Source: Bacteroidota bacterium
Lineage (GTDB): Bacteria; Bacteroidota; Bacteroidia; Chitinophagales; JADIYW01
Assembly (NCBI GenBank): GCA_020436225.1
Contig: JAGQYE010000086.1
Location: 4,410-68,409, forward strand
Length of the DNA stretch: 64,000 nt
Direction: 5' to 3'
Part shown: positions 7,311 to 63,207 of the stretch, in pieces
Numbering within the stretch: the stretch's first letter is position 1
How the letters are laid out: each line of letters starts with the position of its first letter
Translations under genes and position numbers: made by a program
Notes under the pieces: generated by a model
The model's input: only the letters and a program-made list of their open reading frames with translations
Databases searched by the model: none
Told to the model about the DNA's origin: nothing

Positions 7311-7328
7311 CAATTAAAATTTAATGAA

Positions 7329-7793: not shown

Positions 7794-7858
7794 GTAAACA
7801 GGTTGGTGTTTCAGAAATACTCGTTTCCAAATCGTATTAAACAACTCAATTCACTAAT

Positions 7859-9042: not shown

Positions 9043-9043
9043 T

Positions 9044-9463: not shown

Positions 9464-9464
9464 A

Positions 9465-9719: not shown

Positions 9720-9740
9720 AAATTTAATAAAATCACAACT

Positions 9741-10454
9741 ATGCTGTTAAATCCCATTTTAAAAGAAAAACTATTGATTGATATAAGTTGCGGCTTGTAT
9801 GTACTTTTTCTTGCTCCGGTTGTAAAAAACATTGTTGAACAAAGCATATACGGCTGGGGTAATGCCAAAGGAGCAGGTATTTTAGCCATTACTCTACTCA
9901 TTTTCAATGTTTTTGAAATATTTGCCGTTTCGCCATTTATCAGCCAAATCCTGAACGAAATAACAGACAAAAAGATACTGTTTTCAAAACAAACTTCTTT
10001 GATTTTGCTGATTGTTATGCATGCAGTGGTAACATTGATTGCTGTAATTTTTGCTTTTCAGTTGCTCGGTTATACGTTTAAAACACAGGCTTTGTTTTTA
10101 AGTATTGTTGTTGTTTTTATTTTGGCAAAAGAAGTTTTCTTATTGAAAAATTGCATATCCCAAACGCCTATAATCCTTTTCAATGCAGGCTTTTGCAAAT
10201 GGGTCATTGCACTGTATTCCTGTTTAATTTTTACTATTTTTCTGGATGGCAACCAAAGCAACCCCTCATCAAATATTTATATGCTTTTTTTGAATATGGT
10301 AGCTATGGGACTTTTTTTTGCAGTTTTTTACTATGCTATGCGACTGCCCTACACGTTTTATTCGGTTGTTTATAAAACAAGTTCTTACGACAAACTCATT
10401 GGTTTTGTTTCGTTTTTGTTGGTTTTGATTCCGGCAGTTTTAAGGAAAATTTAA
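9741..10454 (+). CDS. polytopic membrane protein, unknown function
   Basis: 237 aa with about 6-7 hydrophobic helices. Last gene of the co-directional cluster. Confidence 0.6.
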   Translation: MLLNPILKEKLLIDISCGLYVLFLAPVVKNIVEQSIYGWGNAKGAGILAITLLIFNVFEIFAVSPFISQILNEITDKKILFSKQTSLILLIVMHAVVTLIAVIFAFQLLGYTFKTQALFLSIVVVFILAKEVFLLKNCISQTPIILFNAGFCKWVIALYSCLIFTIFLDGNQSNPSSNIYMLFLNMVAMGLFFAVFYYAMRLPYTFYSVVYKTSSYDKLIGFVSFLLVLIPAVLRKI

Positions 10455-10523
10455 ACCACATTCCAAAGAATGAATTATAGCTGAAATGATAGTTAGAAAT
10501 TTATTAAAGAAACTTCAAAAAAA

Positions 10524-11135
10524 ATGGACGACAAAACATTAAATAGAAGTATTTGCTAAAATATTAGCAATCTTCAATTTGAGAAATACGCAGCACATTT
10601 TGTAAAAATAAAATTCATTGCTGCCAATTGTGCTATTTACGAAGATGCAGGTGGGAGTAGGGGAGTAAGTTTTGTTGTAAAAAACGAGAAAGGTCAATAT
10701 GTGGATATTTATCTTATACCAACAAGACACCTATTAAATACTTATAGATTCCTCCTACCTCGAAATGACAATGCGGAGTTTTATTTGTCATTTCGACTGG
10801 AGGGAGGAATCTGATTATACTAAAATAGATGTACAACTGTTATTGCTACGGTTTATATCGGAAAAACAAATTACGTTGCTATCCCAAAATACTATTGGAA
10901 TAAAGAGCTTCGGGAAAATCTTTATTTGGTTTTAGTATTGTTTATGGATGACCGCGAGCCGATATTTTATTTAATACCGTCCATAGTCTGGCGTACACCA
11001 GATGAATTGTTTACAGACAGTTCAGGTTATTCCCGTAATAAACCGTCTTGGGGAATCAATATTTCAAAAAATACCATTCCGACACTTGCAGAGAAATATT
11101 GGTTCGAAAATATTATGTTAAATAGAAAATCCTGA
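10524..11135 (+). pseudogene. decayed gene, possibly a PD-(D/E)XK-type nuclease-fold remnant
   Basis: A single reading frame from ATG 10524 to the stop at 11133-11135, interrupted by in-frame stops at 10557 (TAA), 10812 (TGA) and 10821 (TAA). It reads MDDKTLNRSIC*NISNLQFEKYAAHF...GVSFVVKNEKGQYVDIYL...*LY*...GKTNYVAIPKYYW...EPIFYLIPSIVW... Confidence 0.45.
10749..10809. repeat. 61-nt imperfect palindromic (hairpin) element inside the pseudogene
   Basis: 11-bp perfect inner stem CGAAATGACAA (10761-10771) / TTGTCATTTCG (10785-10795), plus a 7-bp outer stem TTCCTCC (10749-10755) / GGAGGAA (10803-10809). Two in-frame stops follow immediately. Confidence 0.6.
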
Positions 11136-11149
11136 TTGTCTGTCGGAAT

Positions 11150-11470
11150 TTAATGGCATTGATGCATGAGCGTTAAGAAAATGGATGGAGTGTAGCGTTA
11201 AAAATGCCTTCTGTCCGAAGCGTAGGCGAAGCCGTAGCAAGTTTAGGCATTTTAGCGGAACGCAATCCATTTTTAGCGAAGGCATCACAGCCTTGATTTT
11301 TTGGTTCTTTTGCATCAAGGCAAAAGAAGATATAGACAAATTCGTGAGCGCCAGCATAGAAAAATGCGGAATAAAAGCCTGATAAGGCACATACGCATTT
11401 TTTGTATGCCAGCGAACACCACGAAATAAAAATTTTCTTTTCTGTGCGTGGGCAAAAAAAATTAAATGCG
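11150..11470. repeat. GC-richer noncoding segment rich in AGCG words and short hairpins
   Basis: Recurrent AGCGTTAA (x2), AGCGTAGG, AGCGGAAC, AGCGAAGG, AGCGCCAG, AGCGAACA. Overlapping alternative stems at 11291-11297/11314-11320 and 11307-11313/11320-11326. The ORFs on both strands have no convincing protein character. Confidence 0.4.
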
Positions 11471-11573
11471 GAGGCTGTGCGTTGGCTTTGTGCAGCAAAA
11501 TTTAATGTATAAGTTTTCAGTTCGACACATTAAAATTTTGCAAGCAAATTGCGTGGGTGAAGCGGCTATTTAC

Positions 11574-11716
11574 ACATAATGTCTAATTATAGGACAAAAT
11601 ATTTTCAACAATTCAGTTGAGGTATTTACAACAGTTGGGATTATTTAACATAATATCATTATAGGACGACCGGGCTTTTTAGCCCGGGTATTTTGTCCTA
11701 TAATTTATATTATGTT
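11574..11716. repeat. MITE-like element: about 27-nt terminal inverted repeats plus an internal third copy and a GC hairpin
   Basis: ACATAATGTCTAATTATAGGACAAAATA (11574-11601) versus the reverse complement of 11689-11715, ACATAATATAAATTATAGGACAAAATA. A third direct copy ACATAATATCATTATAGGAC lies at 11648-11667. Hairpin CCGGGCT-TTTT-AGCCCGG at 11670-11687. Confidence 0.6.
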
Positions 11717-11860
11717 AAATAGGTTTATTGCATTCGTCAATTGTTCAATCTATATTGATATAGAATAATTTAGAAATTAGTAGAATCGAAAATATATATG
11801 TTTGAAAAAAAAGTCCGATATTAGCCAATTCAAAAATACTAAACTTCACTACATCTAAAT

Positions 11861-12595
11861 ATGTACTTATATACAAACTGGGCTGCAACTATACCAATGG
11901 CGAACGAAGAGCAAGATTTTGAACCATTCGTTCATTTATTAGCAAGAGTAATGGATGTTATAGGTACAGGAAAAATCTATTTTATCATTGATAATGCTTC
12001 TAAAGACAGAACCTTAGAATTGGCTCAAGAATTACAAAAAAAGGATAAACGATTTGAAGTGGTTTGGGCACCACAAAATAAAAATGTGGTTGATGCCTAT
12101 TTAACGGGCTTTAAGGTTGCTTATGAAAATGGACATGATATTATTATAGAAATGGATGCCGGTTTGAGTCATGATCCAAGAGCCATTCCGATGTATTTAC
12201 GCGTTTTAAACGAAGGAAATGAAGTGGCGTTCGGCTCTCGTTTCATAAAAGATGGCTCAATGGGCGATTCTCCTTTCCGACGAAGATTCTTAAGTAAAAG
12301 TGGAACAATATTAGCTAACTTATTGTTAGGCACTAAGTTATATGATATGACATCAGGCTTTCAAGGCTTTCATAGAGATGTCATCGGCAAGTTGTTACAA
12401 TATCCTCTCAAATCAAGAGCACATTTTTACCAAACAGAAGTAAAATATCTTTTGCGTAAACATAGAACAGCTGAAGTTCCAATTCATTACCAAGCACCTT
12501 CACCAAGAGTTTCTCCATCAGCTATAAAAAATGCAAGAAATACGCTTTTATATTATTTTTGGGAAAGATTAAAAGGCAACACACCTACATTGTAA
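11861..12595 (+). CDS. family-2 glycosyltransferase (Dpm1/polyprenol-phosphate glycosyltransferase-like)
   Basis: IPMANEE near the N-terminus, IDNASKDRT, EMDAGLSHDP (DxD-type region), SGFQGFHR. Confidence 0.75.
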   Translation: MYLYTNWAATIPMANEEQDFEPFVHLLARVMDVIGTGKIYFIIDNASKDRTLELAQELQKKDKRFEVVWAPQNKNVVDAYLTGFKVAYENGHDIIIEMDAGLSHDPRAIPMYLRVLNEGNEVAFGSRFIKDGSMGDSPFRRRFLSKSGTILANLLLGTKLYDMTSGFQGFHRDVIGKLLQYPLKSRAHFYQTEVKYLLRKHRTAEVPIHYQAPSPRVSPSAIKNARNTLLYYFWERLKGNTPTL

Positions 12596-12617
12596 TATTA
12601 CATAAAAACTTTAATAA

Positions 12618-13628
12618 ATGGCAAATAAATCATTAGTAATCACATCAATAGCTAACGACAAATTAGAAGTTTTACATACGTTTGCAAAATCTTGTACAGA
12701 AAAGAACATCAAATTTATAATGATTGGCGATACAAAATCGCCGGAGCAATTTCATATTGATGGATGTGATTTTTGGTCGGTAGATCGACAATTAACCTTG
12801 AATTCTGAATTTGCAAAAATTTGTCCAACCAGACATTATGCACGCAAAAATATCGGTTACATTATAGCCATGCAAAATGGAACTGATGAATTGGTTGAAA
12901 CTGACGACGATAACCTACCTCGTCCGGAATTTTGGGAAGAAACTACAAAAGAAATAAATGCTTATAACATTAAAGATACAGGTTGGATTAATGTATATAA
13001 ATACTTCAGTAACAAATTTATATGGCCAAGAGGTTTACCTTTAGAAGAACTTCAAAAACAAACACCAAATTTAGATGATTTTTCTGCAGAAATCGTTACT
13101 TGCCCGATACAACAAGGACTTGCTGATGAAAATCCGGATGTAGATGCTGTTTTTCGATTAACTTATCCTCTACCTTTAGATTTTGAAAAAATTGGAACGC
13201 CTTTGGCTTTAGGTAATAATGCTTGGAGCCCATTTAACAGTCAAAATACGTATTGGTATAAAGAAGCATTTCCGTTGTTGTATTTGCCGGCTTATTGTAG
13301 TTTTAGAATGACGGATATTTGGCGCAGTTATGTGGCGCAGCGCATTGCTTGGGCAAATGGCTGGTCAATTCTTTATCACGATGCGACAGTTTGGCAAGAA
13401 AGAAATGAGCATAATTTGTTGAAAGATTTTGAGGATGAAATTCCGGGTTATCTAAATAATAGTAAAATTTGCCAAGAATTAGGCAACCTCAATATCAAAG
13501 GTGGCAAAGAAAATATGTTAGATGATTTGTTAACTTGCTATGATATGTTGACAGGAAAAGGATTTGTAGGCAAAGAAGAAGATGCATTGGTGCGTGCTTG
13601 GTGCAACGATATCAGTAAAGTTTGGTAA
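12618..13628 (+). CDS. STELLO/DUF288-like putative glycosyltransferase
   Basis: LVITSI...IMIGDTKSP and ARKNIGYIIAMQNGTDELVETDDDNLP resemble the DUF288 (STELLO) signature as I remember it. Confidence 0.5.
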   Translation: MANKSLVITSIANDKLEVLHTFAKSCTEKNIKFIMIGDTKSPEQFHIDGCDFWSVDRQLTLNSEFAKICPTRHYARKNIGYIIAMQNGTDELVETDDDNLPRPEFWEETTKEINAYNIKDTGWINVYKYFSNKFIWPRGLPLEELQKQTPNLDDFSAEIVTCPIQQGLADENPDVDAVFRLTYPLPLDFEKIGTPLALGNNAWSPFNSQNTYWYKEAFPLLYLPAYCSFRMTDIWRSYVAQRIAWANGWSILYHDATVWQERNEHNLLKDFEDEIPGYLNNSKICQELGNLNIKGGKENMLDDLLTCYDMLTGKGFVGKEEDALVRAWCNDISKVW

Positions 13629-49693: not shown

Positions 49694-50770
49694 TTACATG
49701 TTAAAGTAAACACTGTTTGGAATAATGCCTACTTTCAAGGTATCTATTGCTGTTGCATTAGAATTATATCGAATAATTTTTCCGGCTTCATTGAAATTGC
49801 CTGCATCTAATGCCCAAATATTGTCAGTATAAGGATGTACTTCTAATCCATAAAAATAACTGTTAATTATAGGTGTTGCCGGTAAAGTTGTAGCTGTATA
49901 ATTTATTGAATAAACATGATTATCTACACAAACATAAAGTGTACTTCCATCTCCTGTTGCCGCCAAATTATCAACGCTACTAAAATCAGCAGTTACCGGC
50001 AATAATTCAATTTCTCTATCTACACTTTCTAAAGCAGGATTAATACGAACTAATTTCGCAGCAGATTGTCTGTCCGGAGTATAGGTTGGCGCAGGATAGG
50101 TTACATAACCTTTGCAAAGTACCCAAATATATCCTTGTGCATCACGTACAAATTCTGTTGGATTATCTCCTACTGTAATTGTATTCGAAACAGCATCTGT
50201 TGAAGTATTTATCACACTAATTGTATTTGCCGTACCAAAACCACCACTATTAGCCACCAAAACTTTTCCATTAGAAGCTATCATTTCTTCTGGTCCATTT
50301 CCAACAGAAATAGTTTTATCTATATTAAAAGTATTAAGGTTTAAGACTAATACAGTTCCTGTAAAACTTCCATTTGTTATATATGCTTTATTATTATTGA
50401 TGCCTAAAGCAAAACGCGGATAATCTGTTCCGGTTGTTACTTCTGCTAAATGCTTAAATGTACGAACATCAACAATGCTTACTTTTTGTGAATTGTTTAC
50501 GCAAATAATTCCAAGATTTCCAACTTTAGTAAATGATTGTACGATATCGCCTAACACTTGTCCGTTATTAGAACTTTCAAAAATATTATTGCTTACTTCA
50601 TTCGTTGGAGAAATGTAAGAAATGCTTCCGTTGTTTTTTGTAAATCCACCTTCATTAACAACAAACGCAGAGCCGTTTTCTGCATATGCATCTGATTTGT
50701 CGGTTTCTTCTTTTTGACAAGCAACAAGTACGCTAAATGTTAGCAATAATAATCCTAATTTTTTTTTCAT
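49694..50770 (-). CDS. surface lipoprotein, YVTN/YncE-like beta-propeller (DUF5074-like)
   Basis: Lipobox LVAC. Repeated ...V.V(I/L)(D/N)..T......I.VG..P... units. 4-nt overlap with the upstream receptor gene. Confidence 0.65.
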   Translation of the reverse strand: MKKKLGLLLLTFSVLVACQKEETDKSDAYAENGSAFVVNEGGFTKNNGSISYISPTNEVSNNIFESSNNGQVLGDIVQSFTKVGNLGIICVNNSQKVSIVDVRTFKHLAEVTTGTDYPRFALGINNNKAYITNGSFTGTVLVLNLNTFNIDKTISVGNGPEEMIASNGKVLVANSGGFGTANTISVINTSTDAVSNTITVGDNPTEFVRDAQGYIWVLCKGYVTYPAPTYTPDRQSAAKLVRINPALESVDREIELLPVTADFSSVDNLAATGDGSTLYVCVDNHVYSINYTATTLPATPIINSYFYGLEVHPYTDNIWALDAGNFNEAGKIIRYNSNATAIDTLKVGIIPNSVYFNM

Positions 50771-52746
50771 TTTAATTGATTTTGATTTTTTGAATAATGA
50801 TATATAATTGAAATTGCATAATGACGTAATGGTTGTGCATACGAGCGAATTGATTCATAAGCTGTATTGGTTATATTATTTATTTTAAATAAAAATTGAA
50901 GTGTATGTTGGTGTTGAATTGTTGCCTTAAAGTTGATATATACATCTAATAAATGATATGGTTTAAGTGCATAGATTTCTATATTTTCTTCATCAGTATA
51001 ACGTTTAGACATGGTTGTATAATTAGCACCAATGCCAATATATTTTTGTTCAATATAAAAATTGATTTTCAGTGCATGTTGTGGATTATAACGTAAAAAA
51101 TTTCCATTAATCGAATTGTTAGTTTCGTCTTTTAAAATTAATGCACGATTGAAATCGTAAATGATATTGTATGAAAACAAGAAATTTTGTGCTTGTTTTA
51201 TACTTTGTTGAAGGTTAAAAGTTGCGCCATAAAGCTGAGTGGTTTTTATATTTTTTGGCGACCAGAGCGCACCATAACTCGGAATCCAAATAATATTATT
51301 GTTTATTTTTGAATAGTAAACATCAACACCGAAAGCCAATTTATTTTCCCATATTTTTTCTTGTCTTTTTCTTGATGAAGTAAAAATTCCTGTTTGTTCC
51401 ATGTTTGCCGTCCAACCTGTTTCTGGTGCAAGATTTGGATTTCCACCAGGTATCCAATATCTATCATTCATATCCGGAAAATGATATTTATCGGCATAAG
51501 TAAATTGTACAGTATAATTTATTTTTTTGCCTGTATTAAATGCTGCACTTACGTAAAGTTGCGGTCGCAAATACTTAAATGAAGCAATTGGTTGATTAAT
51601 TTCAAAAGCAGTTTTAAAAAAACGATATTGCCAATTTAATTCAGCATAAACATTGCCTGTATGTTCAATAATTTTTTTTCCATATTCTTTTACACTGGCA
51701 ACATTCAAATTATAGGTATAGCCGGTTTTCAAAGTAAGATGATATGCGAAAGAATCTGAATAATTTAATGCGTTAGAAAATCTATTAGAAATATATTTTG
51801 AATCAATAAACAAAAAAGTATCTGTTGGCAAACGCTTATCTGTATATTTCATATAATCGTATGCATGAGAAAATGAGAAATCCAAAATATTTTCTTTGAA
51901 TTGTTTTTTATAATTCAAGAAAGATTTTACCGATGCATCTTTTTGATATTTGCTGCTTACTTCATTCGTGCCCATAATAGATGGAATTTCTTTATCCTTC
52001 TTGATGTACCAATTTCCGAATGAAAGTTGTTGTTGTTTTTTTAATTGGATATAAATCGAATTAATAGCACTCCAAGCATTAAGTTGATTATGTTTTATAG
52101 TATCTATTGGATGAGAAAATTTATAAACATCGAGATATGGATAATTCAATTTTCCAGCTTGTTGGATAAGTGAAGAATGCCATTGAACTTTATTATTTCC
52201 AGTTCTTATTCCTAAATTATTTTCAAACGATGAAAAATTTTTGAAATTACTTCTATAATAAACATCCAATTTATTTTCAAAATCCGGATTGGATTGAATA
52301 GATAAATTTCCACCAAAATTGCTGGTATTCTTATCTAAAATAATAGCATCTTTTCCATTTAATAAAGCAGGAATCAAAGATAAATCTGCACCTCCTAATG
52401 TCAACGAATTGACATATATACCATTCCAAGTAACACTTGTATGGTCATCATTGCCGCCACGAACAGAAATGGAAGATAAGTTTCCAATTCCATAAGAGTT
52501 TATTTGAACAGGAAAAAAATGTTGTAATAAGGAAGCAATTCCATCTTGATTAATTGCATTGTTTAATTCATTTGACTTTATTTTATTAAGATTGTCTGTC
52601 TGTGCGAAATAGTGAATCGGCTTTTCTACAATTAAAATACTATCTAATTGATGTGCTGATGAATCGATTTTTTGCTGCGCATAAACAACATTAGACATCC
52701 ATAAAAATGAAATAAAAACAAACGTAAATTCTTTTAATCTCTTCAT
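50767..52746 (-). CDS. btuB: TonB-dependent receptor, BtuB-like (cobalamin-riboswitch controlled)
   Basis: Signal peptide; plug motifs (SISVRGG, TWNGIYVN); 22-strand-size beta region. The cobalamin riboswitch lies directly upstream. Confidence 0.7.
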   Translation of the reverse strand: MKRLKEFTFVFISFLWMSNVVYAQQKIDSSAHQLDSILIVEKPIHYFAQTDNLNKIKSNELNNAINQDGIASLLQHFFPVQINSYGIGNLSSISVRGGNDDHTSVTWNGIYVNSLTLGGADLSLIPALLNGKDAIILDKNTSNFGGNLSIQSNPDFENKLDVYYRSNFKNFSSFENNLGIRTGNNKVQWHSSLIQQAGKLNYPYLDVYKFSHPIDTIKHNQLNAWSAINSIYIQLKKQQQLSFGNWYIKKDKEIPSIMGTNEVSSKYQKDASVKSFLNYKKQFKENILDFSFSHAYDYMKYTDKRLPTDTFLFIDSKYISNRFSNALNYSDSFAYHLTLKTGYTYNLNVASVKEYGKKIIEHTGNVYAELNWQYRFFKTAFEINQPIASFKYLRPQLYVSAAFNTGKKINYTVQFTYADKYHFPDMNDRYWIPGGNPNLAPETGWTANMEQTGIFTSSRKRQEKIWENKLAFGVDVYYSKINNNIIWIPSYGALWSPKNIKTTQLYGATFNLQQSIKQAQNFLFSYNIIYDFNRALILKDETNNSINGNFLRYNPQHALKINFYIEQKYIGIGANYTTMSKRYTDEENIEIYALKPYHLLDVYINFKATIQHQHTLQFLFKINNITNTAYESIRSYAQPLRHYAISIIYHYSKNQNQLK

Positions 52747-52788
52747 ATCAATAAATGTTTCCTCAGAACATTTTCTTTATTTATGAAA

Positions 52789-52967
52789 ATTGGCAGGTCT
52801 TCTGACTTACACTTTACTGAAACCTTCCCGTTATTTTCAAACAGTGGTTGTAGCGTTCAGTGCCGATTAATTAAAAACTATTATTCGGCGTGCTTACAGC
52901 AACTGGGATTGTACAAGACTTTCACTTGTTTCCCTTTTAATTTCGGAAAAAACCGAAAACCAAATCT
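52789..52967 (-). promoter_or_regulatory. cobalamin (B12) riboswitch
   Basis: The minus-strand RNA contains AGGGAA, GUGAAA, GCUGUAA, CCACUG...GGGAAGG and the B12 box AGUCAGAAGACCUGCC. P1 candidate UUGG/CCAA. A hairpin at 52753-52773 sits 6 nt before the AUG. Confidence 0.88.
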
Positions 52968-53070
52968 TCGATGCAATATTACAATTTAATTTTTACAACT
53001 GCTGTTGAATAATGTAAACTTAAAATGGATTCAATTGTATCCAAGCACAAAAATCAATTCTGTTCATCTA

Positions 53071-53972: not shown

Positions 53973-55448
53973 ATGAAAAAGATTACTTTTTTAATATTAT
54001 TATGCTTGTCAGTTTTTGTTATTCAAGCTCAAGAAATAATAAATAGATGTGCTTTAGATGAGATAAATCTACAAACTTTACAAAACAACCCTGAAATTGC
54101 TGAATCTTTTAGAGCACAAGTTCAAAATAGAATTCAAGGAGTTGCTTATGACAGTTCTATTGCCAATACCGATACAACCTACACCATTCAGGTAGTGGTA
54201 CATGTGGTGTATTTGAATGATAATAAATACGAAAATATTCCGGACAATATTATCCAATCAGAAATTGATGCTTTAAATAGAGATTATAATTTATTAAATG
54301 AAGACACCATCAATTTGCGTCCGTTTTTTATTCCGTTTAGAGGCAACGCTAAAATTAAATTTGAGTTAGCTAAAACAGCTCCGAACGGCGCTCCTACTAA
54401 CGGAATTACAAGAACACTAGGGAAATTGGGCAACTTGAGCGGTTGGGATCCACTTAGTACAATTTTATGGACAGCTTTAGGCATCGAACCATTAAAGGAA
54501 GACTTTTTCTTATTAACAGGCTCAACCGGGAAATCTCCTTGGCCTGCTAAAAATTACTTAAATATATATGTTTGTGATTTGAACTATGCCAATAGAAAAT
54601 GTAAAACTTGTTTGACATTATGCGATACTTGCGGTGCTTTAGGTGGTTTTGCTTATCCTCCATCTAATGCTATAAACTGGGGTGCTTTGGCATTAGACCA
54701 TGGTAAAAATGACGGCATTGTTATCGACTTCCGCTTTTTTGGTGAAAATAATTGGTATGCTCAAGATTCTACTTCACAACGCTTTAGAGATTTTTATTCA
54801 AAAGGTAGAACAACCGTACACGAAGTTGGACACTATTTAGGGTTACAACATTCTTGGGGAAATGTTTTGCCTTTGCCAGGATTTGATAATGGCTGTGAAA
54901 TCGACGATTTTATGGATGATACGCCGGAAGAAGAACAAGCATTTGCTAATAACTTAGTACATGGTACTTTAAACCCATGTGATACTTCTGTTAATACATG
55001 TAATAAAAATTATTTAGGTAGAGATTGGCCGGATATGTATGAAGATTATATGGATTATTCCACCGATTTATGCTATAATTTATTTACCAAACAACAAGTC
55101 AACATAATGCGTTATAATTTGCTTACAAGAAGAAGTGGAATTATTACAAAAAGAGAATTAACGCCATCAACTACAACAGCCATTCGACCAACATCTTTTG
55201 AGAAAGTTGGCATCTCTATATTTCCAAATCCAGTGAAAGATGAGTTAGTTCTTCAAAGCAGAATTAAAAATTCTAACGACTTACAATTACAAATTTCTGA
55301 TATAAACGGAAAAGTTCTAATTCAAGACAAAATAGGCAAAAATATAAATGAACATCATGTAGATATGTCTAAATTGGCTGCTGGATTATACTTAATACGT
55401 TTGTCTAATAAAGAATTTACCGCAACTGAAAAGGTAGTAAAACAATAA
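53973..55448 (+). CDS. secreted zinc metalloprotease, M43 (pappalysin/cytophagalysin-like) with T9SS sorting domain
   Basis: HEVGHYLGLQH zinc site; signal peptide; C-terminal ISIFPNPVKDELVL...GLYLIRLSNKEFTATEKVVKQ. Confidence 0.85.
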   Translation: MKKITFLILLCLSVFVIQAQEIINRCALDEINLQTLQNNPEIAESFRAQVQNRIQGVAYDSSIANTDTTYTIQVVVHVVYLNDNKYENIPDNIIQSEIDALNRDYNLLNEDTINLRPFFIPFRGNAKIKFELAKTAPNGAPTNGITRTLGKLGNLSGWDPLSTILWTALGIEPLKEDFFLLTGSTGKSPWPAKNYLNIYVCDLNYANRKCKTCLTLCDTCGALGGFAYPPSNAINWGALALDHGKNDGIVIDFRFFGENNWYAQDSTSQRFRDFYSKGRTTVHEVGHYLGLQHSWGNVLPLPGFDNGCEIDDFMDDTPEEEQAFANNLVHGTLNPCDTSVNTCNKNYLGRDWPDMYEDYMDYSTDLCYNLFTKQQVNIMRYNLLTRRSGIITKRELTPSTTTAIRPTSFEKVGISIFPNPVKDELVLQSRIKNSNDLQLQISDINGKVLIQDKIGKNINEHHVDMSKLAAGLYLIRLSNKEFTATEKVVKQ

Positions 55449-55578: not shown

Positions 55579-57354
55579 ATGATAAAAATCTACACTCATT
55601 TTTTATTTCTTGGTATTCTTTTGGTTCAATGTTTATCTTCATTTGCCCAAAATGAATTTTACAATAATGGAGCTTTAGTTACCTTAAATCAAGGAAGTGG
55701 CGATGCCGAACCTGTTTTATATGTTAATGGAAATCTTACTAATAGTGATGGACTCCTAAATAATTCCAATAGTTTCCTTCAAATAAATTCAGGAAATTTT
55801 GCAAATAACGTCAGCACTTATTATTATCAATCTACAGGAAAAGAAGTGTTTTCCGGCACTACAGACAATACCATTAGTGGAACTTGGAATGGCACAGCTC
55901 TAAACCGCAACCAATTTTATAATCTTAAAGTAAGTAAAGCAAGTGCAACCGGCGAAAATCTTATTTTAGGTTCGCTTACCGGAAATGTAGCCAATATCAA
56001 TGCTGAAGGAACATTGGAGTTTACCGGTTCTAACGGAATTATCAGAACACAAACTACTTCGGCAGGTTCGCCATATAGCGGAAATTATACCAATGAACTT
56101 TATGTAAGAAACCCTTCAGCATCAGCAATAATTGGAAACAGTACAGGAAGTGGCGCTACAACTAAATATATAGAAGGAAAACTACGACGACAAGTAAACG
56201 GAACAGATACATATTTCTTTCCTATTGGTGTAGCCAAAGCAGGCTTAGATGGTATGGAAGCCTTTTCTATAAAAATGAATAGTCTTTCCGTTTCCGGTAG
56301 CACAACTGGATTATTAGGCTATATACAACCAGCCGGAACACCAAGTATAAATTCTGACTTAATTAGCAACGGTGGCATCTTATTTTATGATATAGGATAT
56401 TTTGTAGGTTCAAATAATAATTTCTCACAATGTGTTGGTGGCCCGGATGGACACGATGATGTTGCTGTCATCAACCAAGCTATTACACACGAATGGATAG
56501 TAACTCCAAATGTTACGCCAACAAGCGTGAACTATAACCTTACCGTTTATCCGGGAAGCAATTTAGACAATATAACCTATGCGGCCATGGGCACACCTTG
56601 CGATGATGTTTATTCACAAGCAAAATATTTGGCGAGAGATGGTCGAATTGGTGGAAATACTGCTGTAGGACCAACAGTCAATTACTGGGTTCCGGGTGTT
56701 TATGGCTTATACCAATCTCCTACAGGAAATACAATAAGTAGTCAAAATGGTTTCTCTAGATTTAGATTATTTGGTGCTACAGACAATAATACATCTCTTC
56801 CTATTGAATTATCGAGTTTTACGATTACGCCTGTAAATAATGAATATTTTGAGCTTAATTGGCAAACTGCATCAGAATTAAACAACGCCGGATTTTATTT
56901 ACAGAGGAGTACCGACGGATTTAATTTTGAAGATATAGGTTGGGTTGCAGGAAATAGAACCAGCAACACCATAAATAAATACAGTTTTAACGATAAAAAT
57001 GTAGAAGCTAATATTGGCTATTACTATAGATTGAAACAAATTGATTTAGACAATTCGTTTAATTATTCTAATGTTTTATTCGGTAAATTAATTGGCAATA
57101 AATTTGACGTCTTAAATATTTATCCAAATCCGGCTTCTATTAACCCGACAGTTACTGTATTTTCTCCCAATGATGATATTGTAGAAACAACCATTATGGA
57201 TGTTTTAGGCAGGAAGATTAAAACTCAATCTACCAAATTAATAAAAGGCAATAATAGCTTTGATTTACAAACAGAAGATTTAGCTTCTGCTACCTATCTA
57301 ATTAGATTCCAATCTAATAACACAACTGTAACGAAGAAATTTGTAAAAAAATAA
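55579..57354 (+). CDS. secreted protein with T9SS C-terminal sorting domain, function unknown
   Basis: Signal peptide ...SSFAQ. C-terminal NIYPNPASINPTVTVF...ATYLIRFQSNNTTVTKKFVKK. Confidence 0.75.
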   Translation: MIKIYTHFLFLGILLVQCLSSFAQNEFYNNGALVTLNQGSGDAEPVLYVNGNLTNSDGLLNNSNSFLQINSGNFANNVSTYYYQSTGKEVFSGTTDNTISGTWNGTALNRNQFYNLKVSKASATGENLILGSLTGNVANINAEGTLEFTGSNGIIRTQTTSAGSPYSGNYTNELYVRNPSASAIIGNSTGSGATTKYIEGKLRRQVNGTDTYFFPIGVAKAGLDGMEAFSIKMNSLSVSGSTTGLLGYIQPAGTPSINSDLISNGGILFYDIGYFVGSNNNFSQCVGGPDGHDDVAVINQAITHEWIVTPNVTPTSVNYNLTVYPGSNLDNITYAAMGTPCDDVYSQAKYLARDGRIGGNTAVGPTVNYWVPGVYGLYQSPTGNTISSQNGFSRFRLFGATDNNTSLPIELSSFTITPVNNEYFELNWQTASELNNAGFYLQRSTDGFNFEDIGWVAGNRTSNTINKYSFNDKNVEANIGYYYRLKQIDLDNSFNYSNVLFGKLIGNKFDVLNIYPNPASINPTVTVFSPNDDIVETTIMDVLGRKIKTQSTKLIKGNNSFDLQTEDLASATYLIRFQSNNTTVTKKFVKK

Positions 57355-57364
57355 AAATAATCTG

Positions 57365-58879
57365 ATGAGTAAATTTACTTTAATAGTAGCATTTTTGTTG
57401 GTACTAAGTTTTGCCAATGCACAAACAGGAAATGTTGGTATCGGAACGTCAACTCCAGATGCCAGCACTATACTGGATATTAAATCGACAAATAAAGGCT
57501 TATTAATTCCAAGAGTGGCACTTACTAGTACTACAGATGCTACAACAATTGCATCTCCTGAAGTTTCTTTATTGGTTTATAATACTGCTACACTTGGCAC
57601 TTACCCTAACAATGTTGTTCCGGGTTATTATTATAATTCCGGAACTAAAGCATCTCCTAAATGGACTAGAGTTGCCAACCAAAATACAGCTTGGCAAACT
57701 AATGGAAATACGGGAACAACCAATACTGATTATAATGACAATTCTGCCCAAACTAATGATTTTATGGGTACTACTGATAACCAACCGGTATCTATATACA
57801 CAAATTCAAAAGACAACTATAATAAAACAGACATAAAATTATATAATACTACTAATGCAAGTAATGTTGTAGAGACTCCAACGGACATCTTCCACATTAG
57901 AAAAAATGGAAGAACTGGTATCGCTTATCCTGAAATCGTATCTTTTGCATTAGGAAAATATGCCGCTGGTATTCAATCAAAAACAGAGCTCGGAATTCGT
58001 TTAGGTGATGGAAGTACAACAACTGCCGATAAAACAATTATGACATTAAGAGGCGACGGAACAGTTGGTATAGGAACAACAACACCTGCAGAAATGTTAT
58101 CAATAAATGGTACAGCATCTATCACCAGCAATAATACATTAGAGTTTGGAAAAAGTGTTTCTGGTAAAGAATTTAATGCCGGGAAAATCGGCTATCAAAC
58201 GTTTACAACCGGTGCCTTAGATATAGTAGGTGCAGGAACATCAGGATCAAATAGAATAGTGAAAGTTTGGGATAATTTAGTAACTGCATCAAATGTAATA
58301 TCCGGAAAAGGAATTGTATCCGGAAATATTCAAACAAAAACCGGACCTGGAACAGGTTCAGATAATACATGGCATACAGTTGAATTAGATGCCAATTATG
58401 GTGCAATATCCATTTCTGCGTATGCAACCGGCTCCTATTTAGATGGAGATATTAAAATGCAAGGGGTTGAAATTTCCCCACTATTAAGTACTACATCAGG
58501 CTGGTATTCTTCAAATGGAAACTCTTGGGGTTCTAATTCTACTACTAAAGATGCAAGCTCCGGTACTACTTGTGATGGCTGTTCACATCAAGTATATTGT
58601 CCTAATGATTACATAGCTACAGGTTGGCAAGCTTATGCTAATAGCCAATTAGATTATTATTTAAAATTAAGATGTACAAAATTAGATGATGCTTATGCTA
58701 CTGTAGAAAGTGGTGCGGGAGAAGAATCAGTGCAAAGTTTTCCAAGAAGTACAAGCGATAATATTACACACGTAAGTGTATGTCCAACAGGAACTTTTAT
58801 AAAAGGATTATATATATATACTAATTCGTATTTAGATGGTTACCTAACCGTTTACTGTACAGGTATTAAGAAAAAATAA
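57365..58879 (+). CDS. secreted fibre/lectin-like protein, paralog 1 (GNVGIGT module, duplicated 6-Cys tip)
   Basis: Signal peptide ...ANAQ, then TGNVGIGTSTPDASTILDIKSTNKGLLIPRV...LLVYNT...YYYNSGTKASPKW. Internal GDGTVGIGTTTPAEMLSING. The C-terminal Cys-rich unit is duplicated. Confidence 0.7.
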   Translation: MSKFTLIVAFLLVLSFANAQTGNVGIGTSTPDASTILDIKSTNKGLLIPRVALTSTTDATTIASPEVSLLVYNTATLGTYPNNVVPGYYYNSGTKASPKWTRVANQNTAWQTNGNTGTTNTDYNDNSAQTNDFMGTTDNQPVSIYTNSKDNYNKTDIKLYNTTNASNVVETPTDIFHIRKNGRTGIAYPEIVSFALGKYAAGIQSKTELGIRLGDGSTTTADKTIMTLRGDGTVGIGTTTPAEMLSINGTASITSNNTLEFGKSVSGKEFNAGKIGYQTFTTGALDIVGAGTSGSNRIVKVWDNLVTASNVISGKGIVSGNIQTKTGPGTGSDNTWHTVELDANYGAISISAYATGSYLDGDIKMQGVEISPLLSTTSGWYSSNGNSWGSNSTTKDASSGTTCDGCSHQVYCPNDYIATGWQAYANSQLDYYLKLRCTKLDDAYATVESGAGEESVQSFPRSTSDNITHVSVCPTGTFIKGLYIYTNSYLDGYLTVYCTGIKKK

Positions 58880-58896
58880 TAAATTAAAATTATATT

Positions 58897-60534
58897 ATGA
58901 AAAATATATTAATGATAATTTTGTCTTTTCCAACAATGTTCTGTTTGGCACAAACAGGCAATGTTGGAATTGGTACAGCTACACCAAACGCAAGTGCCAT
59001 ATTAGACGTAACATCAACCAATAAAGGAATATTAGCTCCACGTGTTTCTATAGGAGATGTTTCAGTTTTTGGTTTATCAGGAGATACGAAATCCGCTGGT
59101 ATGATTGTGTATAATACCAATACCGGAACTATAGGTGGTTATGGTACTGGATTTTATTATTGGGATGGAAGCAAATGGCAAAAAATTGTAAATGGTTCTC
59201 CAATAAGAGCACAAAATGCAATAAATCTAAATACGACTACGCCTAATGCATCTGCACAATATCCTTATGTTGAATTAGGTGGCGCCTTAATTCGTCCAAC
59301 AACAATATCTGGATTATCATCTACAAATAAATTGAGTTTTACAGGAAGTGGTGTAGATGCCTTTAATGTAGATGGAACAACATTTTCTGTTGATGCTACA
59401 AATAACAGAGTTGGTATTGGTACTGCAACGCCAAGCGCACTATTACATATTAATGTTCCTGCTAACTCAAATAATAATCCTGATGGAAATGGAATATATG
59501 TTTACAATGCAGGAAATAGCGGAGATAATGACGATGCAATTATTACAGCAAGGGTTAATGGTTCCAGTGCAGGTGATCCATTTATTGCATTAGATATTGA
59601 TGGCGTACAAGGCTGGTCTATGGGCGTTGATAATAGTGATGGAGATAAATTAAAATTTGCTAATGCTTGGAGTGACCCAGGCACCAATACTCGAATGACC
59701 ATTCAACCTGATGGTAATGTTGGAATTGGCACAACCACTCCAAGTTATAAATTAAGTGTAAATGGAACTATTGAATCACAAGATTTTACAGGTGCTGGTG
59801 GAAAAAATATACTAATTGGTGATGATGCTTTTCTTTCTGATGTTGATGAAGCTCATACTATTGCCTTAATTAGTAATTCAACTGCTACTTTAGGCAAATT
59901 AAGATTAGGAAGTAATAGCTCAAGTTATATATATGGCAACAATGGCAATTTAGGACTTAAAACAACAACAACAACGCAAGATGTAAATATTGGTGGTAGA
60001 ATGTATATTAGTGATGGTGTTATTCAACGTGGCGGTTCAGCTATTACTGGTACTTCCGATTTAGGTTTATATTCGAGAGTTTCCGGAAACTATATACGAA
60101 TTGTAACAAATGGTGGCGAAGTTAATTTTTATTCTGATGACAATACAGGAAGCAGTGTCAATGTATCTATTTTATCAAATGGAAAATTAGAAGCTAGAAA
60201 AGGATTTTCTACTGAGCGACAAATTAGATTTTATAAAAGAAGTAGAAACAATGGAGGTGGTGGTGTTGATAATTTAGGAAATTATGATTTTTGTTATTTA
60301 GCCGGTGTTGCATTTAGAAATACTGATAGTAATGTTGATGAAGATGATGATTATCAATGTAATGTATATTCGTTAGATATTAATGGAAATGCCGATTATG
60401 ATGAACAAGAATCTACCGACTACACAACTAATTTCGGATACTCTAGTCGCCCTTATTGGAGAATGTACTCTGAATGTTATGCAGATTGTTCAAATTCAAC
60501 GTGTACTGCTATTTGTATAAATTTTGATTACTAA
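58897..60534 (+). CDS. secreted fibre/lectin-like protein, paralog 2 (same N-module, different acidic 6-Cys tip)
   Basis: Signal peptide ...CLAQ, then TGNVGIGTATPNASAILDVTSTNKGILAPRV...MIVYNT...FYYWDGSKW. Two further internal GIGT(A/T)TP motifs. Confidence 0.7.
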   Translation: MKNILMIILSFPTMFCLAQTGNVGIGTATPNASAILDVTSTNKGILAPRVSIGDVSVFGLSGDTKSAGMIVYNTNTGTIGGYGTGFYYWDGSKWQKIVNGSPIRAQNAINLNTTTPNASAQYPYVELGGALIRPTTISGLSSTNKLSFTGSGVDAFNVDGTTFSVDATNNRVGIGTATPSALLHINVPANSNNNPDGNGIYVYNAGNSGDNDDAIITARVNGSSAGDPFIALDIDGVQGWSMGVDNSDGDKLKFANAWSDPGTNTRMTIQPDGNVGIGTTTPSYKLSVNGTIESQDFTGAGGKNILIGDDAFLSDVDEAHTIALISNSTATLGKLRLGSNSSSYIYGNNGNLGLKTTTTTQDVNIGGRMYISDGVIQRGGSAITGTSDLGLYSRVSGNYIRIVTNGGEVNFYSDDNTGSSVNVSILSNGKLEARKGFSTERQIRFYKRSRNNGGGGVDNLGNYDFCYLAGVAFRNTDSNVDEDDDYQCNVYSLDINGNADYDEQESTDYTTNFGYSSRPYWRMYSECYADCSNSTCTAICINFDY

Positions 60535-60563
60535 TTTTTTTCATTTATTATTTCTAACCAGAA

Positions 60564-61961
60564 TTGAAAAAAAAATATTTAGTCCTTTTTCTTATCTGTA
60601 CACAAATTGTAAGTGTATCTGCCCAAAAGTTACATCTCGCTTTCAGCGACAGCATTATAGAAAAGCCATTCAATATTTGGATTAAAACATTTGACAATGG
60701 TGTTTTTTCTATAAAAGATTCCTTTCTTGTAAATAATGAGAATAAACAAAATATCTATTTTAACCTACCAAATTATATTGGCTATATCGAAGTTTTAAAA
60801 GACAATAAAAATGCTAAAAACGGCATTGGCATCATATTTAATCCTAATGAAAAAGATGCTATTTTCTTGTTTAATCAAGAAGATATAAAAAAGAAAAATT
60901 TTCTATTTAAAAACTCGCCTGAAAATATTCGCTATAATATACTGATAGATTATATGGATAAATTCTTTCAGAAATTTGGAGAAATACGTAAACAAAGAAA
61001 TACTTTAAATCCATTTGATTCTTTATATCTCAATAAATTATTACATACAGAAACAAATCAAGATGCGCTGTATAGTGAAATGAATTTAATTGTCGATTCT
61101 ATTTTAAAAGTTGATACTACTTTATTCACAACAAAATTAGCCGACTTATTAAAAACACCTTGTAGTACTTCGCTCCCATCTTACAAAAAATATTTTGACA
61201 ATTTTAATGCTTTATTGCATTATCATTTATTTGATTATGTTGATTTCAACAACGAAAATATATTAAATCACCCGTTTTTTTACGATAAAATTGATCAATA
61301 CTTCAATTTATATTGTAATGACAATAACATCCAAAACGGCATAGATATTTTAATGCAAAAAGCTTCAAAAAATGAAAAAGTAAAATCAGTTGTCATCAAT
61401 TATTTAGTTAGCTATTTCTTATCTAATAAGAACGATGATTTGGTAGCTTATGTATATGAAAAATATGGAGAATTGTGTAGTATAAATTTAGGAGCTAAAC
61501 AGATGAAAGAATTTTCCAATATTGTGCACACACAAGTTGGTTCAACAATTCCGGATATTGTTTTATACGATTCAAAAAACAATATGCAATCTGTACTTCA
61601 AACTGCATCCAAAAATAAATATACTATCGTATATGTTTGGTTGTCATCTTGCAGTGCTTGTAAAACAAAAACTCCAAAATTAGTTGAGCAAACTAAACCT
61701 TACTTAAATAAAGGCTTGAGTGTTTTTTCCATTTCCTTAGATGAAAATAAAGATGCATGGTTTTCATCAATACTTAAATATCAAACTGAGAAATGGACAA
61801 ATGTTGCCGAATTAGTTACTTTACAAAACTCATCTATTTTGCCAAAACTCAATATCCGAGCAACTCCAAAATTATTTATTATAGACAACAAAGGAACGAT
61901 TATTGCCAAAGATTTATACAATGATGAATTAAATTCAGAATTAAAATCCTTATTCAAATGA
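60564..61961 (+). CDS. secreted protein with C-terminal TlpA-like thioredoxin fold (CSAC)
   Basis: TTG start with signal peptide ...VSAQ. About 320 aa of unknown N-domain. The last ~130 aa read YTIVYVWLSSCSACKTKTPKL...SVFSISLDE...ATPKLFIIDNKGTIIAKD. Confidence 0.7.
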   Translation: MKKKYLVLFLICTQIVSVSAQKLHLAFSDSIIEKPFNIWIKTFDNGVFSIKDSFLVNNENKQNIYFNLPNYIGYIEVLKDNKNAKNGIGIIFNPNEKDAIFLFNQEDIKKKNFLFKNSPENIRYNILIDYMDKFFQKFGEIRKQRNTLNPFDSLYLNKLLHTETNQDALYSEMNLIVDSILKVDTTLFTTKLADLLKTPCSTSLPSYKKYFDNFNALLHYHLFDYVDFNNENILNHPFFYDKIDQYFNLYCNDNNIQNGIDILMQKASKNEKVKSVVINYLVSYFLSNKNDDLVAYVYEKYGELCSINLGAKQMKEFSNIVHTQVGSTIPDIVLYDSKNNMQSVLQTASKNKYTIVYVWLSSCSACKTKTPKLVEQTKPYLNKGLSVFSISLDENKDAWFSSILKYQTEKWTNVAELVTLQNSSILPKLNIRATPKLFIIDNKGTIIAKDLYNDELNSELKSLFK

Positions 61962-62443
61962 AAATAATCTTTTCGATACTAATCATTTGTTTTCTTTTAC
62001 CTATTCAAATAAAAGCGTTAGATAATTCAATTTCAACTATAACAAGCATATCAAAAAATGAATTTGACAATATAAAAAACCCGATTATTGGACAAATAGT
62101 TTTAGTAAAAGAAGATGCAACACTATATTATTACAATGGGAAAAATTGGTTGAGATTAAAAGGTGAATGTTTTCCTGAACCTTCTTCTCCAAAAATTGAT
62201 AGTATAATTTTGTCGGGTAATAATACACTCTTTTATTTTAATGATGAAAACAAAACTACACAACAATACCTAATAAAAAATTTAGACTCCAACAATGAAT
62301 ATTTAGTAAAAGAAAGTCCTGCAAAAATCAACTTAAATCTTAAGAAAGGAGTCTATAACTTCACCATTTTAGGTAAAAACGAATGTGGACTTTCCGGTCC
62401 TCGTTCATCAAAAAACATTGTAATTATTGAGGAACAAAAATAA
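61958..62443 (+). CDS. small secreted protein carrying the half-module (..IVLV..D..LYYYNGKNW..) plus an Ig/FN3-like segment
   Basis: 4-nt overlap with the upstream gene; signal peptide; NPIIGQIVLVKEDATLYYYNGKNWLRL. Confidence 0.6.
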   Translation: MKIIFSILIICFLLPIQIKALDNSISTITSISKNEFDNIKNPIIGQIVLVKEDATLYYYNGKNWLRLKGECFPEPSSPKIDSIILSGNNTLFYFNDENKTTQQYLIKNLDSNNEYLVKESPAKINLNLKKGVYNFTILGKNECGLSGPRSSKNIVIIEEQK

Positions 62444-62541
62444 ATTGTTCTAATTCGTTTAATAAATAACCTATAAAAATTATTTTTCAACCATTTTATC
62501 TAAAAAATAGCAAATTTTAATAATAATAAAACTATTTAAAG

Positions 62542-62787
62542 ATGAAGTATTTTACATTATTCTCTTTCATATTTCTTGCAACTAATTTTACCAATGCGCA
62601 AACCGGTAATGTTGGTATAGGAACGGCATCACCCAATGCAAGTGCCATATTAGAAGTAACATCAACCAATAAAGGAATATTAGCTCCACGTGTTTCTATA
62701 GGAAATGTTTCAGCTTTTGGTTTATCAGGAGATACCAAATCTGCGGGTATGATTGTGTATAATACCAAAATGTGTTTATCCAATTAG
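62542..62787 (+). pseudogene. truncated third paralog (signal peptide plus N-module only, 81 codons)
   Basis: MKYFTLFSFIFLATNFTNAQTGNVGIGTASPNASAILEVTSTNKGILAPRVSIGNVSAFGLSGDTKSAGMIVYNT, then KMCLSN-stop. The 3' end overlaps the convergent gene by 12 nt. Confidence 0.6.
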
Positions 62788-63207
62788 GTTCTTAAAAGCA
62801 CTAAACAGCAATACAGCAAAGCCTCCAACTTCACCTATTATTAAAAGATACATTCCATAAGTCGTAATTAAATTGCGTTGCTTGAATTGGTTTTCTGTAT
62901 GTTTCGTTATTCCTAAAATGATGTAAGTAACAATGGCACTTCCAAAAAATAAAATAGGAATTAGTACAGCAAGAATTTCTATAGTTTCAGGCAAAGTACT
63001 TAAATGTGCAAATTCTTTCAACACCAAACAAGCAAAAGCGTACATCAATGCTGCGCGATGAGCAATGTCAACATAAATATGAGCTTGATGTGTCGGACTT
63101 TTCATAATACTGAAATATTTCCAAACACCAGTCAACAATCCTATCATAAAATAAATGCCACAAGCTATTAAAGCAAGCATTTCCGGTGTTTGTATTTCTG
63201 TGTGCAT
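62776..63207 (-). CDS. four-TM membrane protein, hypothetical
   Basis: 143 aa with four hydrophobic helices. Confidence 0.6.
   Translation of the reverse strand: MHTEIQTPEMLALIACGIYFMIGLLTGVWKYFSIMKSPTHQAHIYVDIAHRAALMYAFACLVLKEFAHLSTLPETIEILAVLIPILFFGSAIVTYIILGITKHTENQFKQRNLITTYGMYLLIIGEVGGFAVLLFSAFKNLIG

Follow-up and report, generated by a model that had tools for sequence, protein, structure and literature searches.

We analyzed a cluster of genes for secreted proteins in a 64,000-nucleotide (nt) stretch of a Chitinophagales genome (Bacteroidota bacterium, assembly GCA_020436225.1, contig JAGQYE010000086.1, positions 4,410 to 68,409; hereafter the window). Two adjacent genes, A (open reading frame (ORF) 57365-58879) and B (ORF 58897-60534), encode paralogous proteins with a predicted phage-type beta-helical shaft and mutually unrelated, interchangeable tips, and the gene directly downstream of B, which encodes a predicted thiol-disulfide oxidoreductase (the redoxin), tracks the tip type that B carries. 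We think it probable, though well short of certain, that A and B are Sec-exported trimeric adhesin or lectin fibres served by a tip-specific periplasmic redox folding factor. What the analysis shows directly is the domain anatomy and homology of the proteins, their mosaicism and synteny, cysteines conserved in pairs, and a setting without phage genes.

Fibre architecture of A and B

A (504 amino acids (aa)) and B (545 aa), both on the plus strand, align with each other only along the N-terminus and shaft. In A, a signal peptide ending in ANA before a Gln is followed by a conserved module (nt 57422-57670), a shaft with a capping loop at nt 58064-58105, and a tip formed by aa 331-504 (nt 58355-58876). 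B is laid out in the same order, with a signal peptide ending in LA before Gln, a module at nt 58951-59184, capping loops at nt 59410-59451 and 59719-59760, and a tip of aa 440-545 (nt 60214-60531). A hidden Markov model (HMM) of the module matched A at 4.6e-38 and B at 4.3e-47. Under the Q-rule of Bacteroidetes, signal peptidase I cleavage between Ala and Gln exposes the Gln, which is cyclised to pyroglutamate (PMC5837995, PMC10653852); in 129 of 148 family members this residue stands just ahead of the first loop.

We searched the six-frame translation of the whole 64 kb with the expression [VIL]G[IVL][GN]T..P...L.[VI]. The GIGT..P...L.V motif occurred at six sites, two in A, three in B and one in a short downstream ORF (the fragment), and at none outside these genes; codon shuffles gave an expectation of 0.02. 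The module HMM found three full or near-full copies: those in A and B and a truncated one at nt 62599-62787 in the fragment. The internal GIGT sites listed in an earlier reading of this DNA (the original prediction) aligned to HMM positions 3-18 only, indicating that they are a short loop motif and not the whole module. Thus, the recurring module proposed there is borne out in A, B and the fragment, but its internal recurrences are not further copies. Two elements are present: the full module, once per protein in A and B, and the short loop motif, which is repeated along the shaft.

Our module HMM agreed with precomputed PF26696 assignments in 227 of 228 homologs, which identifies the ~80-aa module, at the level of sequence, as Pfam family PF26696, named PTL_trimer in the database. 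B is present in the protein database at 100% identity (P0001) and A at 99% (P0121), both with a precomputed PF26696 match; scans of A and B against NCBIfam and a Pfam-A set that did not include PF26696 gave no match even at E<=10. The module is an N-terminal element in A and B, as first described, but many relatives have it as a repeat unit and not simply as a tag at the N-terminus: of the 230 proteins that we examined, 84 carry two modules, and copy number rises to 6 in that set and 10 elsewhere. A single-module phmmer search of 1.84 billion representatives (50% identity clusters) returned 18,180 proteins at E<=1e-3 and 4,444 at E<=1e-10. The source names that we saw were nearly all Bacteroidota (Chitinophagales, Flavobacteriales, Chryseobacterium, Flavobacterium, Aquirufa, Polaribacter and Pseudarcicella), and within this phylum the family reaches Chitinophagales, Flavobacteriales and Cytophagales. 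Relatives in Chryseobacterium, Flavobacterium, Aquirufa and Polaribacter are annotated by NCBI as 'tail fiber domain-containing protein', and the domain is the one present in A, B and the fragment; the PF26696 entry is a catalogue entry only and is silent on accessory genes. PTL_trimer genes in relatives form arrays of paralogs (five in a row in Chryseobacterium herbae, and four in a row beside lectin-domain genes in Aquirufa) or are solitary. The module appears to be essentially cellular: a tblastn search of 50,697 phage genomes gave one partial match, and an IMG/VR scan with the module of A, which reaches close relatives only, gave none. A profile search of the PDB with the module alignment found no real match.

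The only characterised analogue of this large family is the superfamily termed mosaic adhesive trimer (MAT) of Bdellovibrio bacteriovorus. Caulton et al. 2024 (PMC10769870) define MAT proteins by a signal peptide, an N-terminal domain that is conserved and rich in beta structure, a trimeric shaft of beta-helical type in which capping loops occur, and tips that are chimeric and either S74 or non-S74. The capping-loop alignment in Supplementary Fig. 18 of that paper includes NVGIGATAPTAKLE, NVGIGTTTTTEKLN and AVGIGTTNPSGILH, among others, and its consensus (NVGIGTTTPSAKLH type) is the motif of the original prediction. On this match, we read the short internal GIGT sites of A and B as the capping loops found in beta-helical fibres of the phage type.

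Sequence and fold searches also led to fibres. The internal region of B matched PHROG tail-fibre families (phrog_9942 at 1.7e-10), tblastn with aa 140-300 found cyanophage and pelagiphage tail-fibre or structural proteins at 29-34% identity, and phmmer against the PDB gave one specific match, between aa 262-307 of B and the Bd3182 fibre of B. bacteriovorus (8ojn, E = 0.009). The AlphaFold2 (AF2) models were monomers only and had the low shaft confidence expected of an obligate trimer modelled in this way; mean predicted local distance difference test scores (pLDDT) were 74 for A (module 80-96; aa 320-504, 81-98) and 68 for B (module 74-88; tip 82-96). With the A model, the best Foldseek match in the PDB was the Bd2133 fibre (8ond, E = 7.5e-4), and Bd2439, Bd1334 and Bd3182 followed further down. 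The full-length B model had no significant match in the PDB; in BFVD, 25 predicted phage structures matched it at E<=1e-3, among them fibres with an S74 chaperone and virion proteins of cyanophages. These matches, together with the published capping loop, uphold the fibre-like nature that had been proposed for A and B. The accompanying statement that no described system could be named no longer stands, as the module is already a named Pfam family and the MAT fibres are a described analogue.

Judged by sequence, A and B look like a MAT-type fibre family in how they work, with two of its defining features, a capping-loop shaft and mosaic tips. The likeness extends to a chromosomal family of multiple paralogs, a signal peptide with a conserved, beta-rich module right behind it that may correspond to the MAT N-terminal domain, a phage-type beta-helical shaft with an NVGIGTxxPxxxL capping loop of identical form (twice in A, three times in B), and interchangeable tips that are S74 chaperones or non-S74 lectin-like folds, some with disulfides. 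A and B have non-S74 tips and resemble the non-S74 subgroup. They differ from MAT fibres in belonging to another phylum and to a host not known as a predator, and in size (504 and 545 aa versus ~1,000 aa). The N-terminal unit here has ~80 aa and a Pfam family of its own, versus a MAT N-domain of ~130 aa to which it is likened by description only. Finally, the linked redoxin, a half-module protein (S161) and a partner with a type IX secretion system (T9SS) C-terminal domain (CTD) were not found described for MAT in the accessible part of that paper. These three are the new parts of the locus, and the fibres are new members of a catalogued family. Literature searches on PF26696, PTL_trimer, Bacteroidota tail-fibre-domain proteins and MAT in Bacteroidota returned nothing relevant, and we found no experimental study of the PTL_trimer family and no publication on the Bacteroidota fibre family or the fibre-redoxin pairing.

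A comparison with the closest related locus (L006) bears on how the fibres change. Aligned cluster blocks share 72-85% nt identity, and N-modules and tips align at 72-84%, but the central shafts (57665-58343 and 59424-59715) had no DNA alignment and the fibres differ in length (A, 504 versus 452 aa; B, 545 versus 508 aa). At this distance the fastest-changing part is therefore the shaft and not the tip.

Exchangeable tips and the redoxin gene

The tips of A and B are unrelated in sequence, as the original prediction held: profiles of the two tip families, with 20 members for A and 29 for B, gave an hhalign probability of 0.1%. The A tip is larger than the ~100 aa first assigned to it, with ~175 aa (aa 331-504) in three tandem ~50-aa repeats (repeat 2 versus repeat 3, z = 12.4; repeat 1, z ~3), which AF2 modelled as three four-stranded sheets. 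Assignment of this tip to the beta-prism lectin type is suggestive, not proven, and comes from the model; A had no Pfam Jacalin match. The B tip was modelled by AF2 as a confident beta-sandwich. Each tip contains six cysteines, of which, in each family, four never vary and the remaining two occur together or are missing together, the behaviour expected of disulfide partners.

Tips are modular and mosaic across stalks. The B tip recurs at 72-88% identity in 33 proteins with lengths of 382-921 aa, and P0031 is a chimera with a B-like N-terminus and an A-like tip, in line with the exchangeable tips of the original prediction. The C-termini of other family members include Peptidase_S74, GP38, Collar, H_lectin and Gly_rich. 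One related locus (L007) also encodes two intact minimal fibres, at 11806-12540 (244 aa) and 12582-13364 (260 aa), in which a signal peptide, a single GNVG(V/I)GT loop and a short linker lead into an A-type triple-repeat tip; neither has a full PTL_trimer module.

The redoxin gene (60564-61961, plus strand, TTG start, 465 aa) scored above the cut-offs for Thioredoxin_8 (42.5 bits; cut-off 27), Redoxin (42.2; 26.6) and AhpC-TSA (38.4; 26). Its product has a signal peptide ending in VSA before Gln, an N-terminal ~320-aa domain without known relative, and a thioredoxin fold at aa 324-455 (nt 61533-61928) with a CSAC motif at aa 363-366 (nt 61650-61661); PDB matches were 2lrn/4grf, 3hcz and ResA. 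We classify it, from these matches, as a TlpA/ResA-like thiol-disulfide oxidoreductase with a predicted periplasmic location. It shares the C-terminal thioredoxin fold and CxxC with the TlpA/ResA/DsbE-type oxidoreductases of Bacteroidota (2lrn/4grf, 3hcz and 3fkf) but differs from them in its extra ~320-aa N-terminal domain, which its homologs share (24-50% identity), and in its linkage to one fibre-tip type instead of cytochrome maturation genes.

A full-length redoxin homolog lay directly 3' of the fibre gene, with gaps of 0-29 nt, in all ten loci with a B-type tip (the window, L006, L001, L010, L018, L019, L020, L021, L022 with two pairs, and L023). By contrast, only one of the seven loci without this tip had the gene (L011; missing in L008/L003, L009, L007, L015, L016 and L017). 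The association (Fisher's exact p = 5.7e-4) covers about five independent genomic contexts, and the homologs, at 24-53% identity including the N-terminal domain, all keep the CxxC position. Loci L018-L023 lack the T9SS-CTD partner and lie in other genomic contexts, yet they retain fibre-redoxin pairs, indicating that the redoxin gene tracks the B-type tip and is not tied to that partner. The question of whether a thioredoxin-fold gene is always adjacent is thus answered in the affirmative for the B-type tips sampled (10/10) and in the negative for loci without them (1/7). Metagenome scans with S161 and the redoxin N-terminal domain, which reach close relatives only, found nothing. In L022, positions 5158-13206 hold two successive fibre-redoxin pairs (807 + 461 aa and 844 + 427 aa). 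In both, the fibre has a B-type tip and the redoxin a CxxC of its own, which looks like duplication of the pair as a whole.

The position of the redoxin gene recalls phage fibres with a downstream chaperone (T5 pb1 and K1F endosialidase S74; T4 gp37-gp38 and lambda Stf-Tfa). In the Tfa/gp38 type, a tip-specific helper gene stands directly after the phage fibre gene, and here too a putative helper gene lies directly 3' of the fibre gene. The likeness includes shaft homology to cyanophage and pelagiphage fibres, and many PTL_trimer relatives end in Peptidase_S74, GP38 or Collar. The differences are that no virion genes lie nearby, that folding would be periplasmic given the Sec signal peptides, that the putative helper is a thioredoxin-fold CxxC protein and not Tfa, gp38 or an S74 chaperone, and that A and B themselves lack S74.

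A T9SS-secreted neighbour, S161 and a proposed model

The gene upstream of A (T9, 55579-57354, plus strand) encodes a 591-aa secreted protein with a T9SS type-A CTD (Por_Secre_tail 3.9e-11, TIGR04183 1.8e-11) at aa 514-591 (nt 57118-57351). Its N-terminal ~500-aa domain has a fold without match, and solved-structure matches were limited to the CTD. The T9 protein was rejected as a fibre homolog because its alignment was limited to the signal peptides. A T9-marker search of one genome per species, supplemented by contig look-ups, found orthologs exclusively in Chitinophagales/Bacteroidota metagenome-assembled genomes (MAGs) or metagenome contigs. In all seven loci with full-length orthologs (35-85% identity), the next gene, 2-55 nt downstream, was a PTL_trimer fibre gene. 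Together with the ten of ten loci in which the redoxin gene follows the B-type tip, this conservation supports the dedicated accessory genes that had been proposed, in a neighbourhood that is conserved in other genomes.

The T9 gene also has features that we note in their own right. The stretch ahead of the CTD (aa ~405-500) carries the pattern LP.EL.SF...W.T..E.N..GF..QRS.DG..F..IG.V.G......Y.F.D.......YYYRLKQ.D.DG, invariant in nine orthologs; it is reminiscent of an immunoglobulin (Ig)/fibronectin type III (FN3)-like unit common in Bacteroidota cargo and has no Pfam match. L006 and L007 lie ~17 kb apart on one contig (CAUJCO010000007.1, MAG KLAP121), so the closest relative has two paralogous T9SS-CTD and fibre clusters. 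In KLAP121 the block from the TonB receptor to the M43 protease gene is inverted compared to the window, and the M43 gene lies beside the second cluster on the opposite strand, a sign that the paralogous clusters may have undergone rearrangement with each other.

A and B themselves lack a T9SS CTD, as originally stated, and the two upstream proteins (53973 and 55579) carry a type-A CTD by both Pfam and TIGRFAM. Searches with PF18962/TIGR04183 and TIGR04131 gave no match in A, B, the redoxin or S161 at E<=0.1 or E<=10. The outer-membrane step is the main gap in our account because A and B have neither a CTD nor a lipobox; the same gap, in both export route and anchoring partner, exists for the prey-binding MAT fibres (PMC10769870).

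One answer would be that the T9 protein and the fibres form one surface machine, with 'piggyback' export or docking from outside, that acts where cells meet, for example in prey capture, aggregation or antagonism. The T9-then-fibre order in 7/7 loci at 35-85% identity with 2-55 nt gaps fits this idea, as do a weak T9-like gene adjoining a PTL_trimer gene in L014 and the absence of an export signal in the fibres. However, the fibres with B-type tips in L018-L023 have no T9 partner, the A-type protein P0127 is solitary, and the T9 N-terminal domain has no detectable similarity to fibres or solved structures. We know of no documented precedent for piggyback T9SS export, and we consider this explanation unlikely.

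Alternatively, the fibres might be structural or binding proteins of the periplasm or inner leaflet that are never surface-exposed, with the redoxin and the small protein merely co-located periplasmic proteins. A and B have Sec/signal peptidase I signal peptides only, without a CTD or lipobox, the redoxin is also predicted to be periplasmic, and we identified no export route. However, MAT fibres likewise have a signal peptide only and yet are surface-displayed (PMC10769870). In addition, variable lectin-type tips and tip swapping suit outward recognition, and the tight linkage to a T9SS-secreted protein in 7/7 loci points outward. A purely periplasmic role is therefore, in our judgement, less likely still than piggyback export.

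S161 (61958-62443, plus strand, 161 aa) is a small secreted protein with half a module at aa 36-68 (nt 62063-62161), followed by KGEC(F/Y)P.P..P.IDS and containing a conserved cysteine pair (C71 and C143); we suspect an Ig-like fold for its C-terminal domain. The module HMM did not match S161 directly, and direct hhalign gave 46% and E 2e-4. Homologs lie 3' of the redoxin gene in L006 (78%), L010 (27%, 2e-20) and L023 (29.5%, 2.5e-16), and the last of these (L023_s155) matched module HMM positions 31-73 at E 8.7e-6 and has a precomputed PF26696 match. Membership of S161 in a half-module family is thus supported through this homolog: the second-half module of the original prediction holds by way of L023_s155, but is weak to borderline when tested directly. 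S161 is rare, with two database matches only.

The 81-aa fragment (62542-62787, plus strand) has its own signal peptide and a module that ends at GMIVYNT; over 173 nt, its DNA is 90% identical to 58948-59120. The homologous stretch runs to ~62768, the point at which the convergent gene 62776-63207 also terminates. The closest relative lacks the fragment; there, S161 is followed after 28 nt by the convergent gene. From the stop at GMIVYNT and the absence from L006, we conclude that the fragment is probably a lineage-specific truncated remnant of a third fibre paralog, a pseudogene, and not the start of a gene cut by the window. A plain duplicate of the 5' end of B was ruled out by its different signal-peptide part. 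The fragment module may have been homogenised with that of B by gene conversion, and the conserved module would supply homology for tip-shuffling recombination.

In the model that we favour, phage tail fibres would be the ancestors of A and B, a pair of paralogous fibre proteins that would be exported through Sec. Their signal peptides would be cleaved ahead of Gln, and the PTL_trimer module, a capping loop plus a small beta unit, would form a conserved fibre base. A beta-helical shaft interrupted by GIGT..P...L.V capping loops would carry a swappable disulfide-stabilised tip, of a three-repeat beta-prism-like lectin type in A and a beta-sandwich without solved relative in B. Folding and trimerisation would take place in the periplasm, and the fibres would then act on the cell surface, as MAT fibres do, as adhesins or lectins for glycans or other epitopes on particles or other cells. 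The redoxin may be a tip-specific periplasmic folding factor that recognises the B-type tip and forms or isomerises its disulfides, comparable in gene position and co-variation with the tip to the assembly chaperones 3' of phage tail-fibre genes. S161 could use its half-module to dock on the module as an adaptor or cap, and the T9 protein could be a surface-anchored partner, anchor or carrier of the fibres, at least in this lineage. Of this scheme, we infer the trimer state, surface exposure, ligand type and redox-chaperone role.

Several observations weigh against this model. The shafts of A and B have pLDDT <60 in the monomer models. The MAT-fibre matches, though specific, are weak (fold E 7.5e-4; sequence E 0.009), the beta-prism lectins of the jacalin and other types that Foldseek returned for the A tip were not significant (E ~0.15), and the B tip has no significant fold neighbour in the PDB. 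A and B have no lipobox or other recognisable outer-membrane translocation signal and could stay in the periplasm. The T9 partner is missing from the B-tip loci L018-L023, and the sampled loci are not phylogenetically independent. Cysteine count was rejected as a predictor of the redoxin gene, and the test was replaced by the tip-type association: all tips have 4-8 cysteines, and Cys-rich tips also occur in redoxin-free clusters. Finally, TlpA-like proteins are classically reductants, and an oxidase or isomerase role for the redoxin is an assumption.

A bolder form of the fibre model, which we regard as rather doubtful but somewhat less so than piggyback export, holds that the fibre-redoxin pair is the cellular periplasmic counterpart of the phage fibre and chaperone pair. 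The redoxin N-terminal domain would read the tip and install or proof-read its disulfides, and S161 with the T9-anchored partner would provide a route or socket for fibres that have no CTD. If true, thousands of uncharacterised surface lectins of Bacteroidota would be assembled and exported by a new pathway. The locus itself provides genetically tractable hypotheses on export and anchoring, namely a tip-linked redox folding factor and a conserved T9SS-secreted neighbour, and it illustrates a cellular takeover of phage receptor-binding hardware with its modularity retained. PTL_trimer fibres may decide the particles and cells to which environmental Bacteroidota attach and, should the tips be lectins, the family would be a source of new folds for glycan binding.

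Chromosomal setting and transcription

To the left, the cluster is bordered by a cobalamin riboswitch (52775-52979, minus strand; Rfam RF00174, 95 bits) with a TonB-dependent receptor-like ORF (50767-52746) and a DUF5074 beta-propeller gene (49694-50770) downstream of it on the same strand. A B12-regulated uptake operon is therefore directly beside the cluster, and the riboswitch accounts for a conserved non-coding block in the L006/L007 alignment. The left flank also contains a Vut_1 transporter, and the right flank a small membrane protein and a class IV aminotransferase; other flank genes include phosphoglucomutase and DNA polymerase III delta. The flanks contain no capsid, terminase, sheath, tube, baseplate or integrase genes, and we found no phage genes in the related loci. 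PADLOC gave no match on the locus and no sign of a defence system.

This setting bears on the possibility that A and B are receptor-binding fibres of a prophage, tailocin or other contractile tail-like particle. The shaft is homologous to phage tail fibres, and some database names read 'Phage tail fibers' or 'Cyanophage'. However, the flanks are housekeeping genes and the B12-uptake operon, the same cluster is found in different chromosomal contexts, and the guanine-plus-cytosine content of the cluster is unremarkable against the rest of the window. Furthermore, signal peptides of the Sec type are present in all five cluster proteins, and phage fibres assembled in the cytoplasm need none. The near-absence of the module from the 50,697 phage genomes and the IMG/VR scan argues in the same direction. 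The chromosomal, non-phage setting of the original prediction is thus supported, and we consider a phage-derived particle highly improbable. We conclude that A and B are not prophage or tailocin components and not T9SS cargo.

The ORF coordinates, gap sizes and motif positions reported earlier were all correct: gaps of 10, 17 and 29 nt separate T9, A, B and the redoxin gene, and the redoxin gene and S161 overlap by 4 nt. Such tiny gaps are kept across orthologs at 35-85% identity, which argues for co-transcription, and we infer from sequence that the cluster genes share a transcript. We found no terminator-like sites on the plus strand between 53 and 64 kb. Among the intergenic regions tested, and by consensus matching alone, Bacteroidota-type -7 boxes (TAnnTTTG) occurred only at 53930 and 53951, upstream of a gene for an M43-like zinc metalloprotease with a T9SS type-A CTD (53973-55448, plus strand; Por_Secre_tail 1.2e-14, Peptidase_M43 6.4e-08); there was none upstream of 55579. 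Accordingly, the transcript may begin at 53973. The M43 gene neighbours the cluster on its upstream side and may be the first to be transcribed, but relatives do not conserve it as a cluster member: its ortholog in relatives is elsewhere or on the opposite strand. A sigma-70 promoter scan performed at chance level, and its consensus is the wrong promoter type for Bacteroidota. Finally, two minus-strand ORFs in the region, 58890-59120 (76 aa) and 62532-62783 (83 aa), are mirror artefacts of the duplicated plus-strand module DNA and not genes.

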